From the NCBI GenBank assembly GCA_023898385.1, contig CP060220.1, positions 10,370 through 74,369 on the forward strand: DNA of 64,000 nucleotides, read 5' to 3'. How positions within the stretch are numbered: position 1 is the first letter of the stretch; the number at the start of each line of letters is the position of its first letter. This document shows, piece by piece, positions 8,187 to 13,745 of the stretch. The DNA comes from Pseudobdellovibrionaceae bacterium (GTDB lineage: Bacteria > Bdellovibrionota > Bdellovibrionia > Bdellovibrionales > UBA1609). The position numbers and the translations under genes are program-made. Below the pieces are notes generated by a model that was not told the DNA's origin, ran no database searches, and saw only the letters and a list, made by a program, of their open reading frames with translations.

Positions 8187-9710
8187 ATGGCAGTATGGTT
8201 GAAGTATGCGGCGCCGTTGGTGGCGGCGTCAGTGGGCCTTTCGGGTTGTTCAACTTTTCGGCAAGCTAAAACGGGCAATGATGACCGAGAGGTTGAAATT
8301 CGCCATGAGTTTTATCAGCAAAACCCGCAGGCCGAAGAGCAAGAAGTCACGGGGCAGGCCGCATCAATTCCCTTAGTGGTAAATCCAAAGGTCAACCAAT
8401 GGATCAATTATTTTCAAGGTCGAGGTCGACCTCATATGGAGCGGTACCTAAGGCGCTCCAGTCGCTATTTGCCAAAAATGAAATCCGTGTTGCGAGAGCG
8501 GGGCCTTCCTGAGGAATTAGTCTATGTGCCTTTAATTGAATCGGGATTTAACCCAGTAGCACACAGTCACGCCAGTGCCGTGGGTTACTGGCAGTTTATT
8601 AGAAGTACTGGCAAGCGATACAACCTTCGAATCGATGGCTATGTGGACGAGCGACGGGATTTTGTGATGTCCACCGAGGCCGCAGCCAATTATTTTTCAG
8701 CCCTTTACAGTCTTTTCGGAGATTGGTACTTGGCCCTGGCCGCCTATAACACTGGTGAAAATCGCGTTAAACGAGCCACCATGCGCTATCACACACGAGA
8801 CTTCTGGGAGCTGGCAGAGGGAAGGAGGCTTCCCCGCGAAACGCGCAATTATGTGCCTAAGTTTATCGCTGCGGCGTTAATTCATAGAGAGCCGCAACGC
8901 TATGGATTCACTGATATCGACTATCAAGAGCCCCTAGCCTATGACCGCTTTGAAGTGACAAAGCCTGTGAGCTTGATCAAGTTGGCAAAAAATATCGATG
9001 TTCCTTATAAAACATTAAAGGCGTTAAATCCGAGCTTTCGAACAGATTATGTTCCTATTTATGGATCTCGACCGCAGCTGATTCGAGTGCCTACGGGGCA
9101 GCGAGATTTAGCTCTCGCGCAAATAGATAACAGCTACAGCAAAAAGCCGTCTTATGTATCTCGTGATTATTTTTACTATCGCGTACGTCGCGGAGATACC
9201 CTTTCTGAAATTGCCCAACGCCATCGTACGAGGATATCCACACTTCGACGGCTTAACGATTTGGGTCGGCGCTCCTTTCTTAGAGTGGGACAAAAGCTGA
9301 AGGTGCCGGTAGCCGGTGGAGTACAGGTGGCAGCGAACGATTCTGGTGATGAAGCACCGGTCAAGGAGACGGCGCAAAGGGCCGCGAGTATTGAAACCTC
9401 CTCTGACGGAACTCACCGGGTGCGACGAGGCGAGAATCTCACGTTGATTGCCAGAAAATATGGAATGAGTGTGAGTGAATTAAGAAGCCTTAATGGTTTA
9501 GGGCGCCGGTCGATGCTTAGGGTGGGGCAGAAATTGAAGGTTTCAGGAGAAGGCTCATCCTCACTGCGAGTTCACGTGGTTCGACGGGGTGAAAATCTGT
9601 CTTTGATTGCTCAGAAGTACGGCACATCGGTACGAGCTTTGGCGCAAGTTAACTCGCTTGAGAATCGCTCACGCATTTTCGCGGGCAAAAAGTTATATAT
9701 TCCTCATTAA
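8187..9710 (+). CDS. mltD: Membrane-bound lytic murein transglycosylase D (lipoprotein, SLT domain plus 3 LysM)
   Basis: Lipobox LSGC, LIESGF, AVGYWQFI, ALAAYNTGE, ETRNYVPK; three LysM repeats (YRVRRGDTL, HRVRRGENL, HVVRRGENL). Confidence 0.92.
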   Translation: MAVWLKYAAPLVAASVGLSGCSTFRQAKTGNDDREVEIRHEFYQQNPQAEEQEVTGQAASIPLVVNPKVNQWINYFQGRGRPHMERYLRRSSRYLPKMKSVLRERGLPEELVYVPLIESGFNPVAHSHASAVGYWQFIRSTGKRYNLRIDGYVDERRDFVMSTEAAANYFSALYSLFGDWYLALAAYNTGENRVKRATMRYHTRDFWELAEGRRLPRETRNYVPKFIAAALIHREPQRYGFTDIDYQEPLAYDRFEVTKPVSLIKLAKNIDVPYKTLKALNPSFRTDYVPIYGSRPQLIRVPTGQRDLALAQIDNSYSKKPSYVSRDYFYYRVRRGDTLSEIAQRHRTRISTLRRLNDLGRRSFLRVGQKLKVPVAGGVQVAANDSGDEAPVKETAQRAASIETSSDGTHRVRRGENLTLIARKYGMSVSELRSLNGLGRRSMLRVGQKLKVSGEGSSSLRVHVVRRGENLSLIAQKYGTSVRALAQVNSLENRSRIFAGKKLYIPH

Positions 9711-9801: not shown

Positions 9802-9887
9802 CCTTTGGCAGCTGGCTGGCATGGCATAAGCCGAAGCCCCTGTAGCTTTGCGTCCCGTGGTTTCCGCACGGTTTGCCCCTACAAAGG
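9802..9887 (-). ncRNA. c-di-GMP-I (GEMM) riboswitch aptamer
   Basis: Minus strand: CCUUUG UAGGGGCAAACCGUGCGGAAACCACGGGACGCAAAGCUACAGGGGCUUCGGCUUAUGCCAUGCCAGCCAGCUGC CAAAGG. It has GGCAAACC, a GAAA tetraloop in P2, GGGACGCAAAGC and a perfect P1 (CCUUUG/CAAAGG). G at the position equivalent to Vc2 G20 indicates c-di-GMP rather than cGAMP type. Confidence 0.93.
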
Positions 9888-9911
9888 AAGAACACTCGAA
9901 GGAAAGTCCAT
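9879..9911 (-). CDS. Candidate micro-ORF MDFPSSVLPL (10 aa) overlapping riboswitch P1
   Basis: AAGGAGG 7 nt before ATG; the last codons are the 5' strand of P1. Unverified. Confidence 0.35.
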   Translation of the reverse strand: MDFPSSVLPL

Positions 9912-9996
9912 AATACGACCTCCTTGTTAGCGAATGTTAATCTCGTTAGTAAGGTCTTCTCATATAAGAGAAGTTTAGAATCTCGCGTGTCTCACG

Positions 9997-10041
9997 CTAC
10001 TTTGGCGGCGGATCAATGCGCCACTTCTTGGGGTCCGTCAT
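9997..10041 (-). CDS. Candidate micro-ORF MTDPKKWRIDPPPK (14 aa)
   Basis: AAGGAG 8 nt before ATG; ends in a PPP motif. Unverified. Confidence 0.35.
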   Translation of the reverse strand: MTDPKKWRIDPPPK

Positions 10042-10210
10042 CGAAACAACTCCTTTCGAAAATACGTCAGCGTCTATACCTTCATAATAACGCGAAGTGT
10101 CTTTGCGACAAAGAGTTTATGAGGTCCCCATGAGAAAAAACCAGGCTCTGTCTCATTACGGTTCGAAACTCGCCTCGAGATAAGACAACCTGGCAACACT
10201 TCGGCGACGA

Positions 10211-10246
10211 TTGGGTTCCAGGTCCTAAACCTGATCACACAGCGTC
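10211..10246 (-). repeat. REP-like inverted repeat, left of RAYT
   Basis: ttgggttccaggtcctaaacctgatcacacagcgtc is the reverse complement of 11048-11083 at 34/36 positions; internal cagg/cctg hairpin. Confidence 0.9.
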
Positions 10247-10273
10247 AATGTCCACCCGATGCCATTTTGATTT

Positions 10274-10912
10274 TTAAATTATTTCACCGTCGAATAGCAC
10301 GGAGCTGTTTGTTAGCTTGTCTTTTTTGCTTTTAAAGTACTGCCGTTTTAACGCCCACCGGACGGCTTCATTTTGTTGATCGGAGGGCTTTTGGTTCAGC
10401 CACGACAACGTATCGTCTATGTTGTCAAAAAGTGTGTCGTCGAAGGCTAGTGGGATGAGCAACTTGGAGCGACCAAGCAGACCATGAAGAGTGCTGTAAG
10501 GATAATCTTCAACTCTTTCAGCCATACAAGCCTGAACCGGATTTCTATAGTTATACTTGTAGGCATTGAGGTAGTAGCTGGGATGATCTAAAATCGTCTT
10601 ATAGTGTCGGCCGGCAAATGTCTGATTAATACGATTCCCTGCTTGAGTTAGCCTCAAACTCACATTTTTTAGGAGCCGATACATGCACTGACTGATGTTG
10701 GCATCCGGTGTGGACGCTAGCAGGTGAAAATGGTTATTCATAAGAACAAAACTGTGGATTAGCAAATTATGATTAATCACTGTTAGGTATAACTCTTCAC
10801 TAAAAACATCCCATACCTGTGGCATGGGCAAGTTAAACCACTCGCGATTAATACAGCGGCCACTGATATTGTAAGGATACTTCGACTGGAGAATAGCTCT
10901 TGCTCGGGGCAT
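10274..10912 (-). CDS. REP-associated tyrosine transposase (RAYT, Y1 HUH family)
   Basis: HUH motif NHFHLL, catalytic-Tyr region YNYRNPV, YPYST; flanked by inverted REP-like repeats. Start taken at MPRARAIL. Confidence 0.88.
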   Translation of the reverse strand: MPRARAILQSKYPYNISGRCINREWFNLPMPQVWDVFSEELYLTVINHNLLIHSFVLMNNHFHLLASTPDANISQCMYRLLKNVSLRLTQAGNRINQTFAGRHYKTILDHPSYYLNAYKYNYRNPVQACMAERVEDYPYSTLHGLLGRSKLLIPLAFDDTLFDNIDDTLSWLNQKPSDQQNEAVRWALKRQYFKSKKDKLTNSSVLFDGEII

Positions 10913-11047
10913 GGATGGAACTTGCTGCAAATGCATGCCATTTTTTTCTGTCAGCTGTGTGTGTATCTGGCACTTGTAGTGTCCGAATTACATTCCACAG
11001 GGTCCGGTAACCAGGCCAATCTATTTGGGGTTAAATGGGCGGACTCC

Positions 11048-11083
11048 GACGCTATGTGACCAGGTTTAGGACCTGGAACCCAA
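11048..11083 (+). repeat. REP-like inverted repeat, right of RAYT
   Basis: gacgctatgtgaccaggtttaggacctggaacccaa; partner of 10211-10246. Confidence 0.9.
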
Positions 11084-12958: not shown

Positions 12959-12977
12959 TTTAGGACCTGGAACCCAA
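12959..12977 (+). repeat. Third (partial) REP copy, forming the last codons of mrp
   Basis: tttaggacctggaacccaa is identical to 11065-11083. Confidence 0.85.
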
Positions 12978-13745
12978 TACCTGGCGAGCTAGTTTCATGA
13001 AAGCCTGGGCCTCTATGCTTTCGGGGTAACTTTCTACCACGGGCATGCCGGCTTCGCCGGTGAGTCCAATGTTGGGGTTAAATGGAATTTGCGCCAACTT
13101 CTCAATGCCTTTGCTATCAAGGTATTGATCGAGTTCACCTTTTGGAAACAAGGCTATGGGGTCGCCACCGCCGGGGGGTTGAAAATAGGCCATGTTCTCT
13201 ACCACGCCGAGATTTTTTACATTTGTTTTTTCAAACATATCGATGGATTTTTTAGCATCGATGAGTGCGATATTTTGCGGTGTGCAGACGGTGACAGCTC
13301 CATCCACCGGAACTTTTTGGGCCACAGTGAGAGCGATGTCGCCGGTGCCTGGAGGCAAATCAATGATGAGAATGTCCAAATCCCCCCAGTCCACATCGCG
13401 AAAAAACTGGTCCATGGCTTTAAACAGCATGGGTCCCCGCCAAATCACAGCGGAGTCTTCATCTACCAGAAAGCCCATGCTCATCAGCTTCACTCCATGC
13501 CTTACCAAAGGCTGGATTTTTTGATTCTCATCCACCACGGGACGTTGATGAAGGGCCCCAAATAGCCGCGGCATGCTAGGACCATAAAGATCAGCATCCA
13601 GCAGCCCCACCTTTTGTCCTAATTTTTTTAATCCCAGGGCCAAATTGGCGGCCACAGTGCTTTTGCCCACGCCACCCTTGCCTGAGCCAACGGCAATAAT
13701 GCGCTTGATACCAGCAATGGGAGTTTGTTGATCAAATGGGTTCAT
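12960..13745 (-). CDS. mrp: Mrp/ApbC (NBP35 family) Fe-S carrier ATPase
   Basis: GSGKGGVGKST, DADLYGPS, WRGPM, DLPPGTGD, GVVENM. Confidence 0.92.
   Translation of the reverse strand: MNPFDQQTPIAGIKRIIAVGSGKGGVGKSTVAANLALGLKKLGQKVGLLDADLYGPSMPRLFGALHQRPVVDENQKIQPLVRHGVKLMSMGFLVDEDSAVIWRGPMLFKAMDQFFRDVDWGDLDILIIDLPPGTGDIALTVAQKVPVDGAVTVCTPQNIALIDAKKSIDMFEKTNVKNLGVVENMAYFQPPGGGDPIALFPKGELDQYLDSKGIEKLAQIPFNPNIGLTGEAGMPVVESYPESIEAQAFMKLARQVLGSRS

Follow-up and report, generated by a model that had tools for sequence, protein, structure and literature searches.

The stretch of DNA analysed here, called the window, comprises 64,000 nucleotides (nt) of contig CP060220.1 from a Pseudobdellovibrionaceae bacterium (Bdellovibrionales) that originates from activated sludge. 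Its minus strand, on which the RNA and its short open reading frames (micro-ORFs) are read, carries a stand-alone RNA unit of about 365 nt with an aptamer for cyclic di-GMP (c-di-GMP). The unit is orthologous to the 'massively expressed riboswitch RNA' (merRNA) of Bdellovibrio bacteriovorus, and the first of the two micro-ORFs in its 5′ half, ORF1, bears the evolutionary marks of a selected peptide. The elements follow one another as promoter, ORF1, spacer hairpins, purine box 2, c-di-GMP-I aptamer and terminator, and there is no gene downstream; no minus-strand ORF was found to follow the aptamer and terminator. The features are listed below, those of the RNA before those of its neighbours.

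10111-10084, minus strand: sigma-70-like promoter (-35 TTGTCG at 10111-10106, 16-nt spacer, -10 TATTAT at 10089-10084)
10055-10050, minus strand: Shine-Dalgarno (SD) sequence AAGGAG of ORF1 (SD1), 8 nt ahead of the ATG at 10041
10041-9997, minus strand: ORF1, 14 codons (MTDPKKWRIDPPPK) and TAG, with peptide-level conservation
9997-9985, minus strand: small hairpin GCGUG-AGA-CACGC, starting on the last base of the ORF1 stop codon
9973-9956, minus strand: spacer hairpin CUUCUC-UUAUAU-GAGAAG, between ORF1 and purine box 2
9925-9919, minus strand: purine box 2, AAGGAGG (the 'SD' of ORF2), a conserved RNA element complementary to CUUCCUU
9911-9879, minus strand: ORF2, MDFPSSVLPL and TAG, with its ATG at 9911, 7 nt past AAGGAGG; specific to the window
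9890-9882, minus strand: CU box CUUCCUUUG, whose 3′ six bases (9887-9882) are the 5′ strand of aptamer helix P1
9887-9804, minus strand: c-di-GMP-I (GEMM-I) aptamer, Rfam RF01051, with the P1 3′ strand CAAAGG at 9807-9802
9808-9785, minus strand: hairpin CCAAAGG...CUUUUGG, competing for the P1 3′ strand and containing GGGCU
9745-9713, minus strand: intrinsic terminator CCCGCC...GGCGGG followed by U8, ending the RNA
8187-9710, plus strand: LysM/SLT lytic transglycosylase gene, convergent, its stop 3 nt from the terminator end
10274-10936, minus strand: Y1/RAYT-like transposase gene, upstream (weak Y1_Tnp match, 20.6 bits against a cut-off of 23)
12960-13745, on the upstream side of the RNA: ORF of the size of mrp, likened to it by size only

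The start of the RNA, deduced from the predicted promoter, would lie near 10077. The -10 block GCGTTATTnT is kept across orthologous loci, and in B. bacteriovorus HD100 the published 5′ end of merRNA is located 17 nt past the equivalent -10 (PMC3627812). A covariance model from 13 relatives was used to find the aptamer in orthologous loci. It was found in 27 of 80, B. bacteriovorus strains included, and always convergent with the LysM/SLT gene; the gene upstream of merRNA in B. bacteriovorus is mrp. The match in genome G044 (1,073,868-1,073,951, minus strand) falls within the published merRNA interval of HD100 (1,073,741-1,074,185, minus strand; PMC3627812). The shared LysM/SLT synteny, the single aptamer copy and the position of this match identify the window RNA as a merRNA ortholog. 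Among Bdellovibrionales genomes that are at least 90% complete, 198 of 280 (about 70%) carry the aptamer, nearly always as a single copy, and judged by this distribution the merRNA family extends across the order.

The published merRNA is one of the most abundant RNAs of attack-phase cells. It was described as non-coding, without a conserved downstream ORF and unconserved outside Bdellovibrio, and a role as a c-di-GMP sponge was proposed (PMC3627812). In 2024 it was cited merely as a 'predicted c-di-GMP riboswitch' with no mechanism known (PMC11323537). Wastewater RNA contigs over the B. bacteriovorus locus L046 outline a discrete, abundant RNA at about 8100-7715, with a depth of 90-94 and empty flanks, and the covered interval includes ORF1. 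Contigs from activated-sludge DNA runs, compared for micro-diversity, are identical to the window and thus show no within-species variation in ORF2. In the literature, no study of Bdellovibrio ribosome profiling or small proteins was found.

Both micro-ORFs are present exactly as in the preliminary description of this DNA, with AAGGAG-N8-ATG at 10041 and AAGGAGG-N7-ATG at 9911. The pattern AAGGAG-N5-10-ATG occurs eight times in the 64-kb window against 3.3 expected, a count reached by 0 of 100 shuffles, and ORF1 and ORF2 are two of the eight. The comparison of SD, start codon, frame and proline motif in homologous loci, which that description had named as one of its checks, sustained ORF1 and failed ORF2. 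Of 36 orthologous RNAs, 30 have an SD-led micro-ORF of 12-18 codons at the ORF1 position, and 16 of another 25 loci have one as well, among them 12 of the 15 that belong to the window's family. The start is preceded by a strong SD (AAGGAGG or AAGGGGG) at 3-9 nt in those 28 of the 30 loci whose start codon is canonical; in the f5 loci L012 and L013 a clear one is wanting.

The frame itself is conserved as a series of codons. The consensus in the window's family is M-x-K-x-P-K-[ED]-W-R-L-D-P-P-P-K-stop, and its last codons read GAY CCN CCN CCN RAG, with all four bases seen at third positions. The stop also varies, TAG, TAA and TGA all being used. Entropy at codon positions 1, 2 and 3 is 0.77, 0.61 and 1.31 bits, respectively, when computed for the final ten sense codons in a set of 15 sequences. 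Within the D-P-P-P codons the first two positions are invariant, and the third reach 1.7-1.9 bits for the three prolines and 0.92 for aspartate (GAT/GAC). The ratio of non-synonymous to synonymous differences (pN/pS) is 0.40 in the ORF1 frame, compared with 0.83 and 2.11 in the two other frames. Such a codon pattern cannot stem from RNA-structure constraint alone, and it indicates that ORF1 is under purifying selection as a peptide and conserved across the order. Because the amino acids are kept under free synonymous change, we infer, from evolution only, that ORF1 is translated and that its peptide sequence matters. ORF1 would thus be a previously undescribed conserved micro-ORF of the merRNA family. 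Its end appears to be under an added nucleotide-level constraint, since the last sense codon is RAG in 15 of 15 DPPPK-type loci (the Bdellovibrio-type locus L077 has AAA) and the base after the stop is mostly C.

The peptide differs in type between lineages. In the window it ends in Asp-Pro-Pro-Pro-Lys, and, of the 15 DPPPK-type loci in the first set, 12 have the PPP run. At the same place Bdellovibrio has MK.RIHDHHDE(P/A)PK before the stop, and the HD100 merRNA carries MRTHEHHDDELK followed by a stop at 1,074,121-1,074,083, 65 nt from its published 5′ end. In other lineages ORF1 ends in ...D(K)SPK. Neither the PPP run nor the His/Asp-rich run of Bdellovibrio is universal; what all types share is a length of 12-16 codons, an acidic residue close to position -5 and Lys or Glu at the end. 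Elongation factor P (EF-P), to which stalling at PPP is sensitive, is encoded in the window's genome. Since PPP is not universal, dependence on EF-P cannot be the ancestral function. A separate arrangement is seen in L112 (f3), where two tandem ORF1-like micro-ORFs, MSKVKTYRLDPPPE and ...MKLHSKQWNLFPPPI, each closed by a stop, lie upstream of one aptamer, at about -223..-178 and -127..-79 as counted from the start of the aptamer model.

The end of ORF1 is also part of an RNA structure. GCGUCUC, the stretch of the W-R-L codons in the window's family, forms the hairpin H1 with GAGACGY, about 20 nt past the stop. In this register 91.7% of aligned cells pair, compared with 30-44% in slid registers, and the covariation score is 0.46 against 0.29 in shuffles, of which 0 of 500 reach it. 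Compensatory pairs are illustrated by GCGUCUC:GAGACGC and GCUACUC:GAGUAGC. According to this covariation, the last eight or so codons of ORF1 are the 5′ arm of H1 in the window's family and the 3′ arm lies beyond the stop. In L106 the helix extends through the proline codons, which places the lysine codon and the stop codon in the apical loop.

Other pairings were seen around the start of ORF1. In Bdellovibrio-type loci (L046 8046-8021, minus strand) a covarying hairpin sequesters the start codon: AUG pairs with the His codon CAU, and in loci with a GUG start the partner is CAC (GAUG...CAUC versus GGUG...CACC). The repeat tcgaaa/tttcga that had been described around SD1 is present in the window (10059-10054 and 10047-10042); the hairpin it would form is not in the minimum-energy fold and is unconserved in relatives. 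For the Bdellovibrio group RNAalifold also offers a long-range helix between SD1 and the CU box; it was not adopted, as SD1 variants (GGGGG versus GGAGG) do not covary with the CU box. It is indistinguishable from pairing of the CU box with box 2, because both purine boxes read AGGAGG.

The second micro-ORF has a different history. No other examined member of the window's family has its start codon, nor does any Bdellovibrio locus; the Bdellovibrio loci all read AAGGAGGUUCCUAGGG... at this place. L119, the locus most like the window here, has TTTTAAGGAA where the window has TATTATGGAC. Apart from the window, just four loci have a start codon behind box 2, and their peptides show no relationship beyond a C-terminal L-P-L or L-L-L, a likeness imposed by the conserved CU box. 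In this comparison ORF2 is a chance frame of one genome laid over a conserved pairing box.

The box is what persists. About 31 of 36 loci have the purine motif [AC]AGGAGG(U), mostly with no start codon behind it. The motif is complementary to CUUCCUU, a pyrimidine tract of which the P1 5′ strand is part. This pairing occurs in most minimum-energy folds and in 90% of aligned cells. In the genus g45, box 2 drifts from the SD consensus (AAGGAAGG, AGGGAGG, AAGAAGG) yet stays complementary to CUUCCUU. We read box 2, on this pattern, as an alternative partner of the P1 5′ strand, so that the box 2:CU helix, here called P0, and P1 would be mutually exclusive. In the same genus (L101, L106, L107, L108, L111 and L095), box 2 is found in the loop of a covarying hairpin at about -60..-30 of the aptamer model start, with the arms CUCUC...GAGAG and, in L095, CCCUCA...UGAGGG. 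There, the GAGACG strand past the ORF1 stop could compete for the CUCUC arm, which would give an attenuator-like topology of 1:2/3:4 versus 2:3.

The aptamer scores 62.5 bits with RF01051 (cut-off 35; E 7.8e-10), spans model positions 1-87 of 87 and is the sole match in the 3.33-Mb genome. Its P1 helix, CCUUUG (9887-9882) with CAAAGG (9807-9802), covaries in relatives as CUCUUUG:CAAAGAG, UCUUUG:CAAAGA and CUUUUUG:CAAAAAG. The base equivalent to G20 of the Vc2 riboswitch is G in all orthologs examined, which we take to mark specificity for c-di-GMP over cyclic GMP-AMP. The GGGCU of the hairpin at 9808-9785 is complementary to AGCCC in the 5′ arm of the terminator, and relatives have GGGCC:GGCCC, which makes this pairing a candidate antiterminator. 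When the P1 3′ strand is blocked in silico, the antiterminator gains at the expense of the terminator only in L027, L052 and L059. The terminator of the window RNA is folded in either modelled state. The behaviour of the three relatives suggests that c-di-GMP favours read-through, which in the window would run antisense into the LysM/SLT gene; as the window's terminator does not follow suit, this is a hypothesis. The output of the aptamer in the window's lineage is probably a choice between termination and read-through at 9745-9713.

Several frames were noted on the 3′ side of the RNA. An ORF3-like frame of the window (9796-9737, minus strand), 19 codons from ATG to TAG (MGFWGFIWETSKILSLQPA and a stop), was rejected as a chance frame, its length and sequence being unconserved in L021, L025 and L038. 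Its ATG lies 5-6 nt past the P1 3′ strand, which would be its SD, and the frame ends inside the terminator. In Bdellovibrio and several other families, a second conserved micro-ORF of the form M...(D)(W/R)FHSP, e.g., MEGINTYKDWFHSP and a stop, is located between aptamer and terminator (L046 7751-7707, minus strand; L120, which is HD100, 182-138, minus strand; L067, L087, L088, L090, L091, L066 and L011). It has its own SD and its stop abuts the terminator stem; the length varies and the frame to the stop is kept. Its end, UUUCAUUCCCCUUAG, is invariant at the nucleotide level, and the window's lineage has lost its ATG. In the f2 loci L002 and L007, which have no ORF1, an SD-led, proline-rich frame (MDITPIFRPPYPPPKAGFFF...) follows the aptamer at +131..+203 of the model start and runs through the terminator stem.

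Insertions were noted beside the RNA. The RAYT-like gene is an insertion upstream of the RNA, within the interval between the mrp-sized ORF and the RNA. Just upstream of the promoter (10140-10200, minus strand) a ccagg...cctgg hairpin with T6 resembles a terminator. It is part of the repetitive extragenic palindromic (REP) sequences (also noted at 10211-11083) that flank the RAYT-like gene, and they leave the promoter block intact. B. bacteriovorus has a DUF5020 gene (L046 6872-7627, plus strand) as an insertion that separates merRNA from the LysM/SLT gene. This gene is in turn convergent with merRNA, some 35 nt lying between its end and the terminator; the tail-to-tail layout is kept with a different partner.

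The best reading of the locus, to which we give a probability of roughly 0.55, is that ORF1 is a cis-acting translated leader-type micro-ORF in a stand-alone merRNA ortholog. A ribosome dwelling on the end of ORF1 would melt H1 and change the pairing options of the strands downstream. In the window's lineage the dwell would be caused by D-P-P-P, which is expected to be sensitive to EF-P and to Pro-tRNA, and in Bdellovibrio by the His/Asp-rich run. The stop codon may contribute as well: some members of the window's family have it in the apical loop of H1, and in Bdellovibrio it lies in the 5′ arm of a small hairpin. As a result, the stability of the RNA and/or the choice between P0 and P1 would be coupled to the translational state of the cell. 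Of the earlier proposals, a small-peptide mRNA with a riboswitch on its 3′ side agrees with the anatomy of the RNA, and the PPP of ORF1 is conserved throughout the window's lineage. The proposal that translation gates c-di-GMP binding is not upheld via ORF2, and would now run via ORF1 and a relay of helices.

Several observations weigh against a cis-acting ORF1. It is missing, but the aptamer and box 2 are kept, in L008, L099, L113 and the f2 loci, and where it exists its stop and the aptamer are separated by 31 to 156 nt. The fit of the window's own copy to H1 is poor, with 4 of 6 pairs; in place of a good H1 it has the small hairpin that starts at the last base of the ORF1 stop. The PPP run is lineage-specific, Bdellovibrio having EPPK, EAPK or ELK. 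Thermodynamic modelling of the 5′ part with a ribosome footprint left the downstream fold unchanged, and no alternative pairing connecting the ORF1 end to P0/P1 or to the terminator was found by fold modelling. The register of the box 2:CU pairing is only weakly better than its neighbours (90% against 83% and 79%), a test that is weak because both strands are of low complexity. Finally, the RNA runs searched for the window's sequence share only the aptamer core of relatives.

Alternatively, ORF1 could make a free trans-acting peptide of 12-16 residues. The merRNA would then be chiefly a very abundant small-peptide mRNA whose 3′ aptamer tunes stability or termination, much as Vc2 stabilises the RNA upstream of it. 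Purifying selection on the ORF1 peptide sequence argues in its favour, and the peptide could be as abundant as the RNA is in the attack phase (PMC3627812). The stabilisation of upstream RNA by a 3′ c-di-GMP riboswitch is documented (bioRxiv 10.1101/617340), and small-protein genes are reported to be under c-di-GMP riboswitches in C. difficile (PMC13724677). However, the types diverge strongly (PKEWRLDPPPK, RIHDHHDEPPK, THEHHDDELK), which is unusual for a peptide with a conserved partner, and ORF1 has no signal peptide. Moreover, conservation is concentrated C-terminally and the end of the ORF lies in a covarying hairpin, both of which are typical of cis-acting leader peptides. We therefore regard a free peptide as unlikely, although it is the explanation that competes most seriously with the cis-acting ORF1.

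The cis-acting reading can be carried further, to merRNA-family RNAs as translation-gated c-di-GMP reservoirs in which ORF1 is the sensor; this extension is speculative and we consider it doubtful. Ribosomes of starving attack-phase cells would dwell on the ORF1 end, at PPP or at the His/Asp run, and hold H1 open. The open H1 would fix the downstream strands, the choice of P0 versus P1 included, in a ligand-holding or nuclease-resistant form. When amino acids flood in at prey entry, ribosomes would run off, the RNA would refold or be degraded, and c-di-GMP would be released. If true, the extension would provide the trigger whose existence Karunker et al. proposed but which they left unnamed.

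It is improbable that ORF1 and the start-less SD box serve just as loading sites, whose bound ribosomes or 30S subunits protect the RNA against nucleases as in STAB-SD and ermC, with the peptide being irrelevant. The extraordinary abundance of merRNA (PMC3627812) and the stabilisation of Bacillus RNAs by start-less strong SDs and 5′-proximal stalled ribosomes (PMC3997798) speak for such a role, as does box 2, which is a perfect SD with no start codon in most lineages. Mere loading, however, does not need the peptide conservation expressed in the pN/pS of 0.40. No homolog of RNase J, the 5′ exonuclease that those stabilisers block, was found in the window's genome, and in g45 box 2 strays from the SD consensus. 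Stabilisation of the upstream RNA by a 3′ riboswitch, as in Vc2, is compatible with any of these readings.

Translation of ORF2 as the gate is less probable again and, in our view, very much so. In that proposal, a ribosome finishing on CCU UUG UAG blocks P1 and thereby prevents c-di-GMP binding. The geometry is as described: CCT TTG is the P1 5′ strand and TAG follows directly, so the last sense codons do coincide with the helix. A perfect 8-nt SD with an ATG at ideal spacing, one of only 8 such sites in 64 kb, also invites it. Against this stand the unconserved start codon in the window's family and in Bdellovibrio, the unrelated peptides of the four other loci, and the g45 box, which is not even a good SD but is still complementary to CUUCCUU. 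As neither the start nor the peptide of ORF2 is conserved, blocking of P1 by its ribosome is at best a peculiarity of one genome. Least probable of all, and rejected as the principal explanation, is a c-di-GMP-gated sponge similar to CsrB/RsmZ with SD1, box 2 and a downstream GGAAGG as CsrA/RsmA sites, which takes up the GGA-loop alternative raised earlier for SD1: a csrA gene is present (89 bits) and box 2 of g45 lies in the loop of the hairpin CUCUC...GAGAG, but in four orthologs the 9-12 GGA per RNA show no enrichment when set against dinucleotide-shuffled sequences (z 0.16-0.47), the SD1 hairpin is unconserved, and the third-position wobble of ORF1 implies that SD1 serves translation.

With ORF1 as a selected frame, merRNA would be recast from a non-coding sponge to a translated or translation-coupled RNA. 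Two results bear on this: the order-wide spread of the family in the Bdellovibrionales, and a micro-ORF apparently under peptide-level selection inside a covarying hairpin. The start codon, the PPP run, H1 and box 2 are concrete experimental handles on merRNA. ORF2 gives a caution for the annotation of small ORFs, as a conserved purine box that serves in pairing can by chance present a strong SD followed by an ATG.

Four known systems come close to the window RNA. The STAB-SD and ermC/ermA stabilisers share with it a start-less strong SD (box 2, in most lineages), a possible 5′ stall and an abundant RNA (PMC3997798). They differ in that they block RNase J, which was not found in the window's genome, and in that box 2 also complements the P1 5′ strand and leaves the SD consensus in some genera. 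In Vc2 of Vibrio cholerae, a c-di-GMP-I aptamer likewise lies 3′ of a functional upstream cargo RNA (bioRxiv 10.1101/617340). Vc2 also regulates the downstream tfoY, and its upstream RNA is untranslated, whereas the RNA described here has a conserved ORF upstream and its own terminator.

The closest leader peptides are mgtP and mgtL of the mgtCBR and mgtA leaders. In the mgtCBR leader of Salmonella, mgtP is a cis-acting 17-codon ORF with three Pro codons, the last codons of which are an arm of a switching stem-loop (PMC3641672). It senses Pro-tRNA and EF-P (PMC3641672; EF-P link PMC5299641). ORF1 resembles these leaders as a short SD-led ORF (14 versus 17 codons) with three consecutive prolines near its end, whose last codons form a stem-loop arm in a structured regulatory RNA. 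In contrast, mgtP controls transcription into a downstream coding region, which the window RNA does not have. The pairing relay from ORF1 to the aptamer or terminator is hypothetical here, and PPP is lineage-specific in the merRNA family.

The nearest relative is merRNA of HD100 itself, with its own promoter, a single c-di-GMP-I aptamer, an intrinsic terminator, no downstream gene and an orthologous locus between mrp and a LysM/SLT gene (PMC3627812); it also contains an ORF1 homolog. ORF1 is His/Asp-rich in HD100 and of the DPPPK type in the window, and the second micro-ORF of Bdellovibrio (...DWFHSP) between aptamer and terminator is absent from the window's lineage. The main difference concerns the description of the RNA: merRNA was presented as non-coding and limited to Bdellovibrio, whereas the comparison made here points to an order-wide family with a conserved micro-ORF.

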